Source: Promethearchaeota archaeon
GTDB lineage: Archaea > Asgardarchaeota > Lokiarchaeia > Sigyniarchaeales > SOKP01
Length of the DNA stretch: 64,000 nucleotides
Assembly: GCA_029838195.1 (NCBI GenBank)
Contig: JALGVJ010000017.1
Span: 64,001-128,000, forward strand
Direction of reading: 5' to 3'
Within the stretch, counting starts at the first letter, position 1; every line of letters starts with the position of its first letter. A model generated the notes under the pieces. It was not told the origin of the DNA. It made no database searches and saw nothing but the letters and a program-made list of their open reading frames with translations. Both the position numbers and the translations under genes were made by a program. This document shows positions 18,094 to 26,481 of the stretch, piece after piece.

Positions 18094-19539
18094 TTAAATT
18101 TTCAACCTATTGAGTTCAGCTTTATTTTTTAATACCACATCCTGAGTTAAAGGAAAAAACTTCCAAAAAATCAAGGTAGCCACGAGTAAAATTGTTCCAG
18201 GAATAACTCCTTCAAGTAAACGAATACCTAAAAGAACTAAATCCATGTTAGGAACCACGGCAGCCATTTTTTCATAGGTATCATAGCCTGCAACGAACCC
18301 TGTAAGATTATGGACGATAGCGAAAATTAATTCATCAATATTGCCGGTAAGACGATTAAGCATTGCTGTAATTCCAATGAGAATGGCCTTTTGATTGGTT
18401 TTCAGCTTTGCGGCGAAATCATCCACTACTGATGGGAATAATATGGTAAACAAGAAAGTATTTACACCTCCAGAGGCAATTCCGAGTATGAATGCCATGA
18501 TCATGAGATCAAATAGTCCTTGAAAAAAAGTCAATGGAAACAACGCAATACTATATGTTAAACCTCCAACTACAAATGCTTTTTTGTTGTCGTTTACTTT
18601 CCTAATGAATTTAAGCCAAAAAGGAACCGATATTAAAGTTCCTAAGAGATTTAAACCTAAAATAAGAATATATGCATCCGAACTCTCTTGTAGAACAAAA
18701 GTTATTACATACACCAAATTTGGTACGATCAAGGCTAATGTAACCCCATAGGCTACACCATATATGAAATATACTATGAAACTTCTCAATGTTATAATTC
18801 CTTTTAATGCCTCAAAAAAACTAATGTCTTTTTTTTCAATTTCAGGAGAAAAATATCTTTCAATCATTATTTCATCTTCACGATTGCCGGGAAGGCTTAA
18901 AATAGCAAATATCAGACAAAATATTGCAACAACTGTACCCATGATTTGATAGCTAGCTTTCTTATCTCCGGGAATTATATCAATAAAAAGAGCGGGTAAT
19001 ACAATGCCAAATATTACTGAAGAAATATCGAGCGGAACATAATATTTTGTGAAAATACGACGTTCTTCTTCCGTTCGAAATTTATCCGGTCGAATTGTAT
19101 TTATATTAATACCCACGAGCGTGCCAAAGGTGTCATAAACAAATAATGACATTAATAACCACCAAAAAGCGGGCCAAGGATTTGAAGAAACATCGAGATC
19201 AGGGATAGAAAAGAGCAAATAAATAGAAAAGCACCAAGGGACGATACCTACAACAATCCATGGAAATCGTCTCCCCCATTTTCTCGTGAATCGCATGTTT
19301 CTGTCAATCAGAAAACCAAAGAGCGGGTCGTTTACTGCGTTGTATACCATGAATATACTCGATGCGAGAAAAATAAACAAAATATTTAAACCGACAATAA
19401 CTTCGTAATAAAAAAGGTAAAATCCCGACATGACAGCGCCTAATGTTGAAGAGGAAACTTGAGAAAGAGCATTTGAAAGAAAGGTCCATCTTGAATGTCT
19501 TGTTTCAGAAGATTCTTCAAAAGTAATATTTTCATTCAT
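18094..19539 (-). CDS. MFS transporter, GPH family (copy 1)
   Basis: YNAVNDPLFG and WGRRFPW motifs; 12 TMs. Confidence 0.9.
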   Translation of the reverse strand: MNENITFEESSETRHSRWTFLSNALSQVSSSTLGAVMSGFYLFYYEVIVGLNILFIFLASSIFMVYNAVNDPLFGFLIDRNMRFTRKWGRRFPWIVVGIVPWCFSIYLLFSIPDLDVSSNPWPAFWWLLMSLFVYDTFGTLVGININTIRPDKFRTEEERRIFTKYYVPLDISSVIFGIVLPALFIDIIPGDKKASYQIMGTVVAIFCLIFAILSLPGNREDEIMIERYFSPEIEKKDISFFEALKGIITLRSFIVYFIYGVAYGVTLALIVPNLVYVITFVLQESSDAYILILGLNLLGTLISVPFWLKFIRKVNDNKKAFVVGGLTYSIALFPLTFFQGLFDLMIMAFILGIASGGVNTFLFTILFPSVVDDFAAKLKTNQKAILIGITAMLNRLTGNIDELIFAIVHNLTGFVAGYDTYEKMAAVVPNMDLVLLGIRLLEGVIPGTILLVATLIFWKFFPLTQDVVLKNKAELNRLKI

Positions 19540-19712
19540 TTTTGATTTACATGTTTGTTTTAAAAAAATTAGTTGTAATAATATTTAAATCTTAGTAACC
19601 ATTGATTTTTCTAACATCAAATTTTATCATTTGCATTAGTTTTTAAAACCAAGAAATTAATTAAAAAAAAATCTTTAAAACCAAATAATAACTAAAAAAA
19701 AAAAGAAAAATA

Positions 19713-20894
19713 ATGAAAGCGGATAAGGCTGAAATCGAATTTTTATTCAAACAAATGCTTAAAGAGCAAGAGGAAAAAGCTCCTACAGATAAAATTTATC
19801 AGAAAGACATGGAGGATGTTGGAATATTTAAAGTTCAGTGGAAGATATGCGGAATTTTAGGATATCAAATATATGAAAAGGATAAAATAAGCTACAAATT
19901 CGGAGAAACTTTAGAAGAACCTGATGTTACTCTTGTTATTAGAGATAAAGAGTTAGCAGCTCGATTTCTAAAGGGAGAAGTTTTTGATTTTGATATTCTT
20001 CCGGGGTACAAAAAGGAGTATAAAATAAATTATACGGAAGGTAAGAAAATAGTCGAAACGAAAGAAGGAAGGAGAAGAGTTCCCGCCATTTCAAAACCTT
20101 TTGTAGTAGCTCGATTTAATAGAGATAAAAACTATCATCCTTATATCTTATCAAAATTACCCGTTTTTCGAAAACTTGTTGTTGAAACCCGTGTGAATCC
20201 TGATGACATTGGCTATTACATTCCAATCAATCAATCTCTTGGAACTTATGAAAATCAAACTTTACCCATGAAAATTATTAGGAATTTTATTGAAAAAGCG
20301 AGTAATATATTAATACTAAACCAGTGTGGGTGCAGAAAATACAATGGGTGTAAAGATTACGATATAAAAATAGGATGCATTTACATGGGAGATGATATTA
20401 AAAATATCGAACTTATTGAAGGTAAACATCATTTAGCAACAAAAGAAGAAGCTTTAGAACATGTACAACGAGCCGTTGATAATGGTCTAATTCCACTAAT
20501 AGGAAGGGCAATGGATGAAGCTGTGGGATTTGGTGTGGAAGATACGGGACATTTTATGGGAATGTGTTTCTGTTGTCCTTGTTGTTGTACTAATGTAAGA
20601 AATACGAAATATGGAACAAAGTATATTAATTTTTTCCGTAAAATAGAAGGTCTTGAGATTTCGGTGGATCCAGACCTTTGCACGGCATGTGAAACGTGTT
20701 TGGAATCATGTGTTTTTGATGCATTGAAAATAGATGATATAGCTATAATTGATGAGGAAAAATGCATGGGATGTGGTCGCTGTGAAACGGCATGTCCTAA
20801 TGGTGCTATTTCACTAAAGATTACTGATCCACGGGATATTGATGAATTAATTGAAAAAATCGAATCTCATGTTGATGTGACTCCATCTAGTTAA
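19713..20894 (+). CDS. Fe-S protein: SCP2-like N-terminal domain, CFCCPCCC motif, 2x[4Fe-4S] ferredoxin domain (copy 1)
   Basis: CGCR..GC..GC, MCFCCPCCC, CTACETCLESC and CMGCGRCETACP motifs. Confidence 0.82.
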   Translation: MKADKAEIEFLFKQMLKEQEEKAPTDKIYQKDMEDVGIFKVQWKICGILGYQIYEKDKISYKFGETLEEPDVTLVIRDKELAARFLKGEVFDFDILPGYKKEYKINYTEGKKIVETKEGRRRVPAISKPFVVARFNRDKNYHPYILSKLPVFRKLVVETRVNPDDIGYYIPINQSLGTYENQTLPMKIIRNFIEKASNILILNQCGCRKYNGCKDYDIKIGCIYMGDDIKNIELIEGKHHLATKEEALEHVQRAVDNGLIPLIGRAMDEAVGFGVEDTGHFMGMCFCCPCCCTNVRNTKYGTKYINFFRKIEGLEISVDPDLCTACETCLESCVFDALKIDDIAIIDEEKCMGCGRCETACPNGAISLKITDPRDIDELIEKIESHVDVTPSS

Positions 20895-21427: not shown

Positions 21428-22873
21428 TTATATTTTCAACCTATTGAGTTCAGCTTTATTTTTTAATATCACATCCTGAGTTAACGGAAAAAACTTCCAA
21501 AAAATCAAGGTAGCCGCGAGTAAAATGGTTCCGGGAATGACTCCTTCAAGTAAGCGAATGCCCAAAAGAACTAAATTCATATCAGGAACCACGGCAGCCA
21601 ATTTATCATAAGTATCATAGCCCTCAACGAATCCTGTAAGATTATGGACGATAGCGAAAATTAATTCATCAATATTGCCGGTAAGACGATTAAGCATTGT
21701 CGTAATTCCGATGAGAATGGCCTTTTGGTTGGTCTTCAGCTTTACGGCGAAATCATCCACTACGGATGGGAACAATATGGTAAACAAGAAAGTATTTGTA
21801 CCTCCACTGGCAATTCCGAGTATGAATGCCATGATCATGAGATCAAATAGTCCTTGAAAAAAAGTTAATGGAAATAACGCAAAACTATACGTAAGACCAG
21901 CAATTACAAATGCCTTTTTGTTGTCGTTTACTTTCTTAATAAATTTAAGCCAAAAAGGAACCGATATTAAAGTCCCTAAGAGATTTAAGCCTAAAATAAG
22001 AATATATGCATCCGAACTCTCTTGTAGAACAAAAGTTATTACATACATCAAATTTGGTATGATCAAGGCCAATGAAACCCCATAGGCTACACCGTATATG
22101 AAATATACTATGAAACTTCTCAATGTTATAATTCTTTTTAATGTCTCAAAAAAACTAATGCCTTTTTTTTCAATTTCAGGAGAAAAATATCTTTCAATCA
22201 TTACTTCATCTTCACGATTGCCGGGAAGGCTTAAAATAGCAAATATCAGACAGAATATCGCAACAACTGTACCCATGATTTGATAGCTAGCTTTCTTATC
22301 TCCGGGAATCACGTTAATAAAAAGTGCGGGTAATACAATGCCAAATATTATTGAAGAAATATCGAGCGGAACATAATATTTTGTGAAAATACGGCGTTCT
22401 TCTTCCGTTCGAAATTTATCCGGTCGAATTGTGTTTACATTAATACCCACGAGCGTGCCAAAGGTGTCATAAACAAATAATGACATTAATAACCACAAAA
22501 AAGCAGGCCAAGGATTTGAAGAAACATCGAAATCAGGGACAGAAAAGAGCAAATAAATAGAAAAGCACCATGGGACAATACCGATAACAATCCAAGGGAA
22601 ACGTCTCCCGTATTTTCTCGTGAATCGCATGTTTCTGTCAATCAGAAAACCAAAAAGCGGGTCGTTTACTGCGTTATATACGACGAAGATCGTCGAAGCA
22701 AGAAAAATCAACAAAATATTTAAACCTACAATAACTTGGTAATAAAAAAGGTAAAATCCCGACATGACAGCGCTTAATGTTGAAGAAGAAACCTGAGAAA
22801 GAGCGTTTGAAAGGAAGATCCATCTTGAATGTCTTGTTTCAGAAGATTCTTCAAAAGTACTATTTTCATTCAT
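21428..22873 (-). CDS. MFS transporter, GPH family (copy 2)
   Basis: Same length (481 aa) as, and near-identical to, 18094-19539. Confidence 0.9.
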   Translation of the reverse strand: MNENSTFEESSETRHSRWIFLSNALSQVSSSTLSAVMSGFYLFYYQVIVGLNILLIFLASTIFVVYNAVNDPLFGFLIDRNMRFTRKYGRRFPWIVIGIVPWCFSIYLLFSVPDFDVSSNPWPAFLWLLMSLFVYDTFGTLVGINVNTIRPDKFRTEEERRIFTKYYVPLDISSIIFGIVLPALFINVIPGDKKASYQIMGTVVAIFCLIFAILSLPGNREDEVMIERYFSPEIEKKGISFFETLKRIITLRSFIVYFIYGVAYGVSLALIIPNLMYVITFVLQESSDAYILILGLNLLGTLISVPFWLKFIKKVNDNKKAFVIAGLTYSFALFPLTFFQGLFDLMIMAFILGIASGGTNTFLFTILFPSVVDDFAVKLKTNQKAILIGITTMLNRLTGNIDELIFAIVHNLTGFVEGYDTYDKLAAVVPDMNLVLLGIRLLEGVIPGTILLAATLIFWKFFPLTQDVILKNKAELNRLKI

Positions 22874-23019
22874 TTTTGATTTGATTTACAAGTTTGTTTT
22901 TAAAAAAATTAGTTGTAATAATATTTAAATCTTATTAAAGATTGATTTTTCTAATATATAACATTTATTTGCATTAGTTTTTAAACCTAAGCAATAACTG
23001 AAAAAAAAAATGAGAAATA

Positions 23020-24201
23020 ATGAAGGAAAATAAAGCTGAAATCGAAATTTTATTTAAACAAATGCTTAAAGAGCAAGAGGAAAAAGCTCCGAACGATAAA
23101 ATTTATCAGAAAGACATGGAGGATGTTGGAATATTTAAAGTTCAGTGGAAGATATGCGGAATTTTAGGATATCAAATATATGAAAAGGATAAAATAAGCT
23201 ACAAGTTCGGAGAAACTTTAGAAGAGCCTGATGTTACTCTTGTTATTAGAGATAAAGAGTTAGCGGCTCGATTTCTAAAGGGAGACGTTTTTGATTTTGA
23301 TATTCTTCCGGGGTATAAAAAGGAGTATAAAATACATTACACGGAAGGTAAGAAAGTAGTCGAAACGAAAGAAGGAAAGAAAAGAGTTCCCGCCATTTCA
23401 AAACCTTTTGTAGTAGCTCGATTTAATAGAGATAAAAATTATCATCCTTATATCTTATCAAAATTACCCGTTTTTCGAAAACTTGTTGTTGAAACCCGTG
23501 TTAGTGAACATGATGTTGGCTATTACATTCCAATCAATCAATCTCTTGGAACTTATGAAAATCAAACTTTACCCGTGAAAATCATTAAGAATTTTATTGA
23601 AAAAGCGAGTAATATAATAATATTAGATTACTGTCCATGCAGAAAATATTATGGGTGTAAAGATTACGATATAAATATCGGATGCGTTTATATGGGAGAT
23701 GATACCAAAAAAATCGAACTTATTGAAGGTAAACATCATTTAGCAACAAAAGAAGAAGCTTTAGAACATGTACAACGAGCCGTTGATAATGGTTTAATTC
23801 CACTAATAGGAAGGGCAATGGATGAAGCTGTGGGATTTGGTGTGGAAGATACGGGACATTTCATGTCCATGTGTTTCTGTTGCCCTTGTTGTTGCACGAA
23901 CGTGAGGAATACGCAATATGGAACAAAGTATATTAATTTTTTCCGTAAAATGGAAGGTCTTGAGATTTCGGTGGATCCAGACCTTTGCACGGCATGCGAA
24001 ACGTGTTTAGACTCATGTGTTTTTGGTGCATTGAGCGTAGACGATATAGCCATGATTAACGAGGAAAAATGCATTGGATGTGGTCGCTGTGAGAAGGCAT
24101 GTCCAAATGATGCCATTTCATTAAAGATTACTGATCCACATGAAATTGATGAATTAATTAAAATAATCGAATCTCATGTTGATGTGACACCATCTAGTTA
24201 A
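23020..24201 (+). CDS. Fe-S protein with SCP2-like N-terminus (copy 2)
   Basis: Same length (393 aa) as, and near-identical to, 19713-20894. Confidence 0.82.
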   Translation: MKENKAEIEILFKQMLKEQEEKAPNDKIYQKDMEDVGIFKVQWKICGILGYQIYEKDKISYKFGETLEEPDVTLVIRDKELAARFLKGDVFDFDILPGYKKEYKIHYTEGKKVVETKEGKKRVPAISKPFVVARFNRDKNYHPYILSKLPVFRKLVVETRVSEHDVGYYIPINQSLGTYENQTLPVKIIKNFIEKASNIIILDYCPCRKYYGCKDYDINIGCVYMGDDTKKIELIEGKHHLATKEEALEHVQRAVDNGLIPLIGRAMDEAVGFGVEDTGHFMSMCFCCPCCCTNVRNTQYGTKYINFFRKMEGLEISVDPDLCTACETCLDSCVFGALSVDDIAMINEEKCIGCGRCEKACPNDAISLKITDPHEIDELIKIIESHVDVTPSS

Positions 24202-24456: not shown

Positions 24457-26481
24457 CTATATTGAGATGCGTTTTTTGCTCAATTTTGGCTTGCTGATGA
24501 GGAATCCGCATTTAGGACAAATCAGATACATGCGAAATTCTTTCATACTGGTAAAAAAACTTGCGCCAAGGATGCCAGCGGGAAGAGTAAAAAGAGATAC
24601 GCCCAAGAAAGCAAAACTAATGGTCGCTAACCGACCTGCTGTAGTTATGGGATATACATCTCCAAATCCCGTGGTGGTGAACGTGGTAACTCCAAACCAA
24701 ATCGTGGAAGGAATGCTTCGAAATTTTTCGGGTTGAGCGTCCTTTTCCAAGTGGTAAATTATGGTAGAGGCGCAGATGAGAAATATCACGCATAACAGAA
24801 TTGTAGTAAAAAATTCTTTTTTTGAATATTTGATGATAACTCCGATTATATCAAAAACAGCAAGAAAATGGCCAATTTGAAATATCACGAACATTCTCAA
24901 TGCTAATAAGACCGGAATTCCTGAGGGAAATGCATTGAACAAGAATATCGTAAGATAGAGAGAGATGAGGAAAATAAGGTCCGTGATTCCCATGAAGCTT
25001 TTAATGTAATTTAATCTCCCCTGAATCTTATCGTGAAATTTCTCTTCTTCAGCTGCAACGATACTCCAAACTCTCAGAAGGAATTCAACGGTAAAAACGA
25101 TTGCTGAAAGCATTAGAACCGTAAAAATTACGGTGCGATTTTCTTGGTAAAGAATGGGATTTGTTTCTGCCATTATGATGAGGATATTAAACGTGATGAA
25201 AGTTGCGAAAAATACGAAGATTACTACTTGTAAAATAGTATGAGGATATCTAAATTCAAGATTTTCATAAATAAACCGTTGGCGGGAGAATTGAGCGTCA
25301 TGAGTGTAGTATACATCTTGTTTTTTTACTTCTTCAAGTACTTTTTTTAAGTATTTTGGTTTTCTACCCCTAGATCGTGCAAAAACTTCTCTTAATAATT
25401 CGCTTCTTTCGATGACATGTTGACAATTTGGGCATTTTTCTAATAAGGGATTTCTCGCTTGAATTTCATCCACGAATCCCGAGCCTATAACGCTAGCAGG
25501 CAATAAGAACACTGTAATGCCAATAACGGAAATGACTGATGAAACAATCTTGCCCATCGTAGTAATAGGTGTAATTTCACCGTACCCTATAGTAAATAGA
25601 TTTATAGCAGTAAACCACATGGAACTAAATAGATTCGTAAAGACTTCCGGTTGAGCATCGTGTTCTGTAAGAAACATTAAAATCGACCCCAGGAACATTA
25701 ATAATAAAGAGAGAATGAAGGTAATCAAGAGTTCTTCCTTTTTCTCTTTAATAACCGTCCATATTATATCGAATGATTGGGAATATCGCACGAGCTTGAA
25801 GAATACGATTAAGTGAAAGATTCTAACGAATCCTCGGTATTCACTGGTCAAGGGTATGATTAAACCAAGAATGATGGCGATAATACTTGAGAGATCTACT
25901 AGAGGAAGAAAGTTACTCATGTAGCGCAAGCGCTTATAAGGCATTCCATCATATTTAGGATTAAGATCGCACGTCCATAACCTTAACAAAAATTCCACGC
26001 TAAGGATGATTGCGGCAATTATTTCAATAATAATCAAGACGTCGCGATAATCTTTTTGGATATAATCAACGGTTTCAAATATGATGGTCATGCCGCTTGC
26101 GATGGAAATTATAATGATTAAAAGAGAGAGTGCGGTTGAATATATATTAGCAAACTTTTGCGTGGTTAAAGCTGAATGTGTTTTTACTTTAATTTTCTTT
26201 GAAAATTTAAGAAAATCCTTAGTTCGCTTTTCATGAGCTCTTTTTCGAATTGAGATTGATGCAGTAATCTTATTCACGTATTTTTGTTTTTTATCGGGTA
26301 AAGTCAACTCGGTCAAGTTTGTTTTTTCTGTGTCTATATTTATTTCTTCTTTTTTCCCTTTTACAAGAATTCCTTGCTCCTCTTTTAGCTTATTCAAGGC
26401 ATCTTGATGGAATTTACTATTGATATGACGGGCAGAAGTAGGATCTTTCAGTTCCTTTCCACAAATCTCACATTTAGGCAA
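24457..26481 (-). CDS. Tandem 2x6TM potassium channel with N-terminal C2H2 zinc finger
   Basis: Two complete S1-S6 repeats (VEFLLRLW/VEFLLRVW in S2; EHDAQPE/EKDAQPE turret; filters TIGYG and TTGFG; LLPASVIG/TLPAGILG in S6); TTG start. Confidence 0.9.
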   Translation of the reverse strand: MPKCEICGKELKDPTSARHINSKFHQDALNKLKEEQGILVKGKKEEINIDTEKTNLTELTLPDKKQKYVNKITASISIRKRAHEKRTKDFLKFSKKIKVKTHSALTTQKFANIYSTALSLLIIIISIASGMTIIFETVDYIQKDYRDVLIIIEIIAAIILSVEFLLRLWTCDLNPKYDGMPYKRLRYMSNFLPLVDLSSIIAIILGLIIPLTSEYRGFVRIFHLIVFFKLVRYSQSFDIIWTVIKEKKEELLITFILSLLLMFLGSILMFLTEHDAQPEVFTNLFSSMWFTAINLFTIGYGEITPITTMGKIVSSVISVIGITVFLLPASVIGSGFVDEIQARNPLLEKCPNCQHVIERSELLREVFARSRGRKPKYLKKVLEEVKKQDVYYTHDAQFSRQRFIYENLEFRYPHTILQVVIFVFFATFITFNILIIMAETNPILYQENRTVIFTVLMLSAIVFTVEFLLRVWSIVAAEEEKFHDKIQGRLNYIKSFMGITDLIFLISLYLTIFLFNAFPSGIPVLLALRMFVIFQIGHFLAVFDIIGVIIKYSKKEFFTTILLCVIFLICASTIIYHLEKDAQPEKFRSIPSTIWFGVTTFTTTGFGDVYPITTAGRLATISFAFLGVSLFTLPAGILGASFFTSMKEFRMYLICPKCGFLISKPKLSKKRISI

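Follow-up and report, generated by a model that had tools for sequence, protein, structure and literature searches.

A two-repeat, 2x6TM potassium channel encoded by a single gene in an Asgard archaeon

The stretch of DNA analysed here (the window) comprises 64,000 nucleotides (nt) from contig JALGVJ010000017.1 (positions 64,001 to 128,000) of the Promethearchaeota archaeon assembly GCA_029838195.1. Its reverse strand carries a gene of 674 uninterrupted codons (24457-26481), the sole long open reading frame (ORF) at this position in an ORF analysis of the window, and this gene encodes a potassium channel in which two complete units of six transmembrane segments (6TM) follow one another on one chain (2x6TM). 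An earlier reading made from the DNA letters, referred to below as the sequence-only reading, had described a single 674-amino-acid (aa) ORF with two full S1-S6 repeats and no internal stop, and this is what is seen. The start codon is TTG, with GAGGA 6 nt upstream. Because three homologues in the family alignment have ATG at the equivalent residue and the same N-terminal motif (MPKC.., MVKC.., MPIC..), the TTG start is accepted.

Both repeats are recognised by Pfam, which reports Ion_trans and Ion_trans_2 twice each (E 4e-37 and 1e-25). The Ion_trans score (PF00520; 128.1 bits versus a cut-off of 25, two stretches) places the protein in the voltage-gated-like superfamily, and that of Ion_trans_2 (PF07885; 89.9 bits versus a cut-off of 22.5, also in two stretches) identifies a potassium channel pore. 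NCBIfam gave no family-level match, and its MVP-type and Kch models lay far under their cut-offs. Aligned to one another from S1 through the cysteine knuckle that follows S6, the two repeats are 29% identical (E 4e-31). An AlphaFold2 (AF2) model of the monomer, built from a 21-sequence family alignment (mean predicted local distance difference test, pLDDT, 79.3; predicted template modelling score, pTM, 0.66), contains the 12 transmembrane helices and two pore helices expected of such a chain, and a helical S4-S5 linker is predicted in repeat I. In structural alignments of the model, repeat I superposes best on Kv4.2 (Z 15.8, root-mean-square deviation, rmsd, 2.7 Å over 243 residues) and repeat II on KCNQ1/2 (Z 16-17).

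Does the chain as a whole resemble a known channel? VIA-align matched the whole-chain model to the two-pore channels (TPCs) TPC2 (Z 15.5, 480 residues, rmsd 9.0 Å) and TPC3 (Z 14.9, 446 residues), and repeats II-III of Cav1.1 can be aligned with it in the same way. Foldseek alone returned single-repeat matches only, the TPC-wide alignment being obtained only via VIA-align. From this whole-chain alignment it follows that the predicted chain positions its repeats roughly like a TPC subunit. A two-copy prediction covering residues 236-674 only (score 0.12, mark 0.42) speaks neither for nor against binding. The features of the gene are collected in Table 1.

Table 1. Features of the two-repeat channel gene, given as positions in the window, with residue numbers of the 674-aa protein.
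Feature	Position	Strand	Basis and details
Whole coding sequence, 674 aa, two-repeat (2x6TM) K+ channel	24457..26481	(-)	start TTG, stop 24457-24459
C2H2-like finger, N-terminal (C4, C7, H19, H25; CxxC-x11-H-x5-H)	26392..26481	(-)	alignment, pLDDT ~89
Long basic helix ahead of S1, residues 63-106	26164..26295	(-)	AF2; 22 K/R in residues 31-111
Repeat I: S1-S6, pore helix, knuckle; residues 112-362	25396..26148	(-)	Pfam, AF2, family hidden Markov model (HMM)
S4 of repeat I: R216, R220, H223, K229, R232	25786..25836	(-)	family alignment, KCNQ5 alignment
Selectivity filter I, TIGYG, residues 297-301	25579..25593	(-)	unchanged in 21 aligned members
S6-I hinge LPASVIGSGF	25474..25503	(-)	alignment to KCNQ5 S6 LPAGILGSGF
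Knuckle I, CPNC, residues 350-353 (C350, C353 invariant)	25423..25434	(-)	beta-hairpin directly after S6
Inter-repeat cytoplasmic linker, residues 363-414; basic patch 369-380, two short helices	25240..25395	(-)	alignment, AF2
Repeat II: S1-S6, pore helix, knuckle; residues 415-667	24481..25239	(-)	Pfam, AF2, family HMM
S4 of repeat II, degenerate: R529, Q532, H538	24868..24909	(-)	family alignment, KCNQ5 alignment
Selectivity filter II, TTGFG, residues 603-607	24661..24675	(-)	alignment, motif scan
S6-II hinge LPAGILGASF	24556..24585	(-)	alignment to KCNQ5 S6 LPAGILGSGF
Knuckle II, CPKCG (CPKC = residues 655-658, 24508-24519; C655, C658 invariant)	24505..24519	(-)	beta-hairpin after S6

How widespread is this arrangement? 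Two homologue searches were made, one word-indexed and the other an exhaustive HMMER search of 1.84 billion representatives. The word-indexed search returned 33 close two-repeat homologues (457-706 aa, 44-65% identity, 66-99% coverage), and altogether more than 40 collinear two-repeat homologues (34-67% identity) are found in independent assemblies from NCBI, JGI, ENA and Logan, on contigs of up to 1.28 Mb. Their records are named merely 'potassium channel family protein' or 'ion transporter'. Where organisms are named, they are Promethearchaeota, Hermodarchaeota, Hodarchaeota and Thorarchaeota, in agreement with the Asgard host that the sequence-only reading had thought likely. The 21-sequence alignment has 97 invariant columns, which include the glycines of both selectivity filters, the four knuckle cysteines, K229, R232 and H538. 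The ESM Atlas holds no cluster of the two-repeat type, and its matches were single-repeat clusters only (scores 0.85-0.88).

Among 400 species-representative genomes of the phylum, the gene is present in 17, always in single copy: the genome of the window, 15 of the 134 others of its own family, and one of the 14 of a second family in the same order. The other 383 genomes gave no separate single-repeat relative at E 1e-10 with the channel as query. More distant two-repeat members (P0121-P0129; 34-45% identity), found by the HMMER search, have CPxC after each repeat and, where a standard filter motif was detected, mostly GYG in both repeats. Two other distant members, P0131 and P0133, are without knuckles. 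The contig of P0131 also encodes an Arf/Ras-type small GTPase, as expected of an Asgard archaeon. The N-terminal finger of the window's protein is kept in only four of the 21 aligned family members; its ligand pattern is present, and Pfam zf-met, zf-C2H2_jaz and similar models match it at E 0.03-0.15, below their cut-offs.

The two selectivity filters of the chain differ from each other. Both occupy precisely the positions that had been given for them, and the claimed GYG/GFG asymmetry is fixed in the core family. Most of the distant two-repeat members have GYG/GYG, and in one distant member, P0123, the order of the pair is reversed. The GYG/GFG combination is also found in P0131 and in a eukaryotic two-repeat protein, P0118 (972 aa, from a eukaryotic transcriptome), which has TLGYG and TVGFG filters and a Pfam match to IRK (inward-rectifier). 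Since P0118 has the same filter asymmetry, GYG/GFG has arisen more than once.

Which of the two voltage sensors could still sense voltage? In the S4 register of KCNQ5, repeat I has R220, H223, V226, K229 and R232 at positions 2 to 6, so that four S4 residues sit on KCNQ5 R2, R3, R5 and R6; a further arginine, R216, is found one turn ahead of these. The corresponding six positions of repeat II are occupied by P, L, R529, V, Q532 and H538. In most homologues H223 is replaced by Arg and Q532 by Lys, while K229, R232 and H538 do not vary across the family. In repeat I, E163 and R167 in S2 and D196 in S3 are likewise invariant or nearly so. The S4 sequences quoted in the sequence-only reading are found in both repeats, but its claim that both S4 helices are depleted of basic residues holds for repeat II and not for repeat I, and the description of the channel as probably weakly or non-voltage-gated was too strong, given that S4 of repeat I has four basic residues and a histidine, together with the conserved partners E163, R167 and D196.

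The alignments suggest that the channel plausibly combines one competent sensor, in repeat I, with one degenerate sensor, in repeat II. Repeat I would carry a plausible voltage sensor formed by the basic residues of S4 with E163, R167 and D196. Repeat II, most of its S4 charge having been lost, would probably serve as a passive or regulatory scaffold, and with this sensor degenerate the channel would be driven by two sensors, not four. Alternatively, the protein might be a voltage-independent leak channel or a ligand-gated K+ channel in which both sensors are vestigial and the gate is controlled by a collar of CPxC knuckles (through metal or redox state) or by the basic linker. S4 of repeat II does retain only R529 and H538, but S4 of repeat I has a similar number of basic residues to S4 of KCNQ5 when the two are aligned. 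Repeat I lacks the R4 charge and has a histidine where most homologues have arginine; however, the invariance or near-invariance of K229, R232, E163, R167 and D196 would be hard to explain if its sensor were vestigial. Control by the collar or the linker would fit with the invariance of the knuckles, which lie directly beneath S6, and with a basic patch in the linker that is kept in part of the family. We consider this alternative unlikely and prefer the reading with one competent and one degenerate sensor type.

The best HMMER matches outside the two-repeat family are single-repeat 6TM proteins of about 260-290 aa, with 33-39% identity. In 68 of the 97 top single-repeat matches (median 277 aa), a CPxC motif, most often CPHC, lies 49-68 residues after the filter; by a looser count, exactly one knuckle is present in 75 of the 97, typically about nine residues from the C-terminus, and none has two. 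The genomes that encode single-repeat CPxC channels are mostly bacterial (Pyrinomonadaceae, Nitrospina, Lachnospiraceae, Binatia, Desulfovibrio), with a few methanogens (Methanotrichaceae). This family is unnamed, its records reading 'ion transporter' or 'voltage-gated potassium channel', and each Asgard repeat has the same S1-S6 segments, GYG-type filter, LPxG..G.GF hinge and knuckle some 52 residues after the filter. Whereas the single-repeat proteins have one repeat per chain, with four identical chains expected per pore, the Asgard protein has two diverged, fused repeats with unequal S4 charge and GYG/GFG filters. The Asgard channel is therefore a fused derivative of the CPxC-tailed single-repeat channels and not an ordinary member of that family.

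The CxxC motif that had been claimed after each repeat (CPNC, CPKC) is located once in each. From filter to CPxC, repeat I counts 53 residues and repeat II 52, a spacing that stays at 52-53 throughout the two-repeat family; the protein ends 16 residues past the second knuckle. The idea that the CxxC motif was an addition of the fused form was considered and rejected, the motif being inherited from the large single-repeat parent family. Why should a knuckle be kept in every repeat? Pairing of knuckles is suggested by the fact that one knuckle provides two of the four ligands of a metal site, while the parents never have a second. A tetrahedral site would thus take two knuckles, from neighbouring repeats or subunits, and the four knuckles of a dimer would make up two Cys4 sites for Zn or Fe immediately under the gate. 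Such sites might stabilise the assembly or make gating depend on metal or redox state. It is possible, though on balance doubtful, that in the two-repeat channels and their single-repeat parents alike the knuckle is half a metal site, pairs of which, formed across repeats or subunits, make two Cys4 Zn/Fe centres just below the bundle crossing as an undescribed, metal- or redox-dependent assembly or gating collar. If this were true, the two-repeat fusion would fix which knuckles may pair. The conserved half-site knuckles hint at a possible undescribed metal-binding module in a large, uncharacterised family of prokaryotic K+ channels.

How many chains form the pore? The genome (96.6% complete, 7.9% contamination) was scanned with Ion_trans, and the two matches obtained both fall within the channel ORF; in the same genome scan there was no other Ion_trans or Ion_trans_2 match and no match to TrkH, KdpA or Kup (K_trans). 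Because no other Ion_trans gene is available in this genome to provide four P-loops, a dimer is the only way to reach that number, and the dimer of the sequence-only reading is supported to this extent. Two chains would assemble as a pseudo-tetramer in the order I-II-I'-II', as in a two-pore channel, and the pore would be lined by two GYG and two GFG filter strands, diagonally placed. As the sole K+ pore found in the genome, the channel is probably the main K+ pathway of the cell: if other K+ systems are truly absent, it would probably be the main K+ route, with uptake driven by the membrane potential.

When two repeats are found on one chain, have they been fused once, and is this event connected with the multi-repeat channels of eukaryotes? 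For tree building, sequences were cut into repeat units by the family HMM. In a quick LG+C20 tree of 84 units, the 16 first repeats group together without exception (SH-aLRT 96), the 16 second repeats likewise have a clade of their own (89), and both groups stand together with two bacterial-type singles. In an LG+G4 tree of 62 units, the first repeats (support 98/96) and the second repeats (93/69) are exclusive sister clades (95/85). The repeats of eukaryotic multi-repeat K+ channels form separate clades in both trees, with support of 99-100. The eukaryotic multi-repeat sample consisted of the four-repeat protein of Thecamonas trahens and unnamed multi-repeat proteins taken as eukaryotic; the trees are unrooted and include neither TPCs nor the tandem channels published for oomycetes and dinoflagellates. 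Because the eukaryotic multi-repeat K+ channels stand apart, the trees point to a single duplication and fusion at the base of the archaeal family, independent of the eukaryotic cases sampled, as the sequence-only reading had proposed when it spoke of an independent intragenic duplication. The gene would have arisen when a bacterial-type, KCNQ-like single-repeat gene with a CPxC tail was duplicated in tandem and fused, at the root of a clade within one order of the phylum.

An ancestral link to TPCs and four-repeat channels had also been thought conceivable, and in its full form this would make the Asgard two-repeat gene the forerunner of the eukaryotic two- and four-repeat channels (tandem Kv-like, TPC, Cav/Nav). 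The host is indeed an Asgard archaeon, but the family is restricted to the 17 of 400 phylum genomes mentioned above, in two families of one order. The architecture is TPC-like and the whole chain aligns with TPC2, TPC3 and Cav repeats; the identity to TPCs, however, is 12-13%, and the best 60 of 147 Protein Data Bank (PDB) sequence matches are all K+ channels (Kv, KCNQ, MlotiK1), with no TPC. In this PDB search both repeats match KCNQ5/4/2/1 best (E 1e-24 to 1e-26), ahead of Kv4, Kv1 and MlotiK1, so that the closest solved relatives by sequence are eukaryotic; yet the KCNQ-like motifs are also present in the bacterial and methanogen relatives, and the KCNQ likeness thus belongs to the whole prokaryotic family. 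Moreover, in both trees the two Asgard repeats group as sisters within a set of prokaryotic single-repeat channels, and the eukaryotic multi-repeat proteins (Thecamonas and the others) have clades of their own. The protein is of Kv/KCNQ kinship and not of TPC kinship, and a role as ancestor of the eukaryotic forms is very improbable.

Other proteins with additional repeats were met in the searches. P0148, P0190 and P0197 were considered as bacterial two-repeat channels and rejected, as they have extra S1-S4 domains and a single pore. In P0148 (533 aa), P0197 (586 aa) and P0190 (691 aa), one or two extra S1-S4 domains resembling voltage sensors precede a normal 6TM unit; source records give Pseudomonadota and Oxalobacteraceae for the P0148 cluster (61 members), and Beijerinckiaceae and Methylocystaceae for the P0190 cluster. 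P0124 (1493 aa; contig L003, 160-4641) is a four-repeat K+ channel from a gene without introns, its four TIGYG repeats being nearly identical and connected by long linkers rich in Pro, Ala and Ser. Its gene region has 56-66% GC, it has a two-repeat relative, P0135 (617 aa), and its closest relative with a single repeat, P0199, is encoded on a contig that is compact and prokaryote-like. P0124 and P0135 represent a separate, recent repeat expansion. A contig of a Methanotrichaceae metagenome-assembled genome (L033, 2998-4696) has two neighbouring single-repeat 6TM K+ channel genes as distinct ORFs. The first shows a degenerate filter, TVGDN, and no knuckle, the second TVGYG and CPHC. Possibly this pair represents a heteromeric equivalent of the Asgard channel in which fusion has not occurred.

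Is the fusion itself real? The linker had been singled out as the place where a misassembly would show. Logan contigs from four other vent or sediment metagenome runs match 25023-25367 and 25419-25574 without indels; they are fragmentary and of low depth, none spans the whole gene, and 25368-25418, about 50 nt of the linker, is uncovered. The stretches that they cover include most of the linker. The stronger evidence is that the linker is collinear in the more than 40 homologues. The suggestion that adjacent single-repeat genes, such as exist unfused in Methanotrichaceae, were joined by misassembly or sequencing error across a linker with some 50 nt uncovered, or that the gene is a decaying pseudogene, is extremely improbable. 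Against it stand 674 codons without a stop, the recurrence of the collinear fusion with its conserved linker in those more than 40 proteins of the four assembly sources, and a clear constraint on both repeats (97 invariant columns in 21 sequences). With indel-free contigs and collinear homologues from separate assemblies, misassembly is excluded for practical purposes.

The architecture, motifs, conservation, distribution and repeat phylogeny of the channel are directly established. The best explanation overall, which we regard as likely, is that the gene encodes a dimeric, K+-selective 2x6TM channel with one competent and one degenerate type of sensor and with paired knuckles, that this channel is the main K+ route of the cell, and that it originated by a single fusion; the dimer, its selectivity and gating, the metal sites and the physiological role are what we infer from those observations. 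Several points weigh against this explanation. The R4 position of S4 in repeat I is uncharged (V226), which makes the voltage sensitivity of this helix uncertain. Rather than pairing into metal sites, the knuckles might form disulfides or a docking site for a partner protein, or each might coordinate metal together with other ligands. Further K+ systems may have been missed, given the completeness and contamination of the genome. The gene is missing from 383 of the 400 related genomes and is therefore not essential to the lineage. Finally, the clades are backed by the quick C20 tree and by the smaller LG+G4 tree, the bootstrap of the latter not having fully settled.

The genes around the channel include no channel-related partner and form no operon with it; the neighbours are genes for an MFS transporter, an Fe-S protein, a methyltransferase, a GNAT protein and NifB/ParA-like proteins. 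Immediately downstream of the channel gene, a divergent gene pair occurs twice in tandem (18094-20894 and 21428-24201). Each pair consists of a 481-aa MFS_2 transporter (-) and a 393-aa protein whose C-terminal domain is a 4Fe-4S ferredoxin domain (+).

Multi-repeat pore-forming subunits are treated as a eukaryotic invention in reviews and surveys. In the searchable literature, from which most subscription journals are outside scope, no description of a prokaryotic two-repeat 6TM K+ channel was found, and a 2026 paper describes tandem K+ channel architectures as absent from bacteria and not known in prokaryotes, where K2P channels have not been found either (PMC13715775). The present family shows that the first step, a single duplication and fusion with later divergence of sensors and filters, has also been taken by a prokaryote, one that belongs to the closest archaeal relatives of eukaryotes. 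This points to convergence, and not ancestry, in the case of the eukaryotic multi-repeat channels. The channel is a small natural prokaryotic concatemer with a fixed 2:2 composition of charged and degenerate sensors and of GYG and GFG strands, a type of construct that biophysicists normally have to engineer. Its relevance is thus to channel evolution and biophysics, and it gives no evidence for an Asgard origin of the eukaryotic multi-repeat channels.

How does the Asgard channel compare with the systems that it resembles? KCNQ channels (Kv7; e.g., 9j38, 7cr0, 6uzz) have in common with both repeats the S2 motif EF..R.W, the S2-S3 motif GRL and the S6 hinge LPAGILGSGF, as seen in HMMER alignments to KCNQ5; single repeats match the KCNQ fold with Z 15-17, at a sequence identity of 24-28%. 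Unlike the Asgard channel, KCNQ channels have one repeat per chain, and their C-terminal calmodulin-binding and tetramerisation region is absent from the Asgard protein, which gave no PF03520 match at E up to 1. K2P channels obtain four P-loops from two chains, like the dimer proposed here, and they also show GYG/GFG filter asymmetry. However, they are 4TM/2P proteins with no voltage-sensor domains and with an extracellular cap, whereas in the Asgard channel each pore is preceded by S1-S4, and it is not a K2P channel.

The eukaryotic tandem Kv-like channels share the 2x6TM Kv-like layout (PMC7576140), but the eukaryotic multi-repeat channels sampled here have no CPxC knuckles. In a 2020 survey, tandem Kv-like channels were reported 'for the first time' in dinoflagellates, oomycetes and chlorarachniophytes, in eukaryotes only, and one repeat was often found to have more S4 charge than the other (PMC7576140). 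TPC1-3 share with the Asgard channel the 2x6TM single chain, and the dimeric pseudo-tetramer with unequal sensors, which is typical of TPCs, is proposed here too. TPCs conduct Na+ or Ca2+ and have no GYG filter. By contrast, both Asgard filters are of the K+ type, and the low sequence identity and an rmsd of 8-9 Å between TPCs and the Asgard model do not indicate kinship. The Asgard channel is TPC-like in layout and a K+ channel by descent, with an independent origin within the K+ channel branch.

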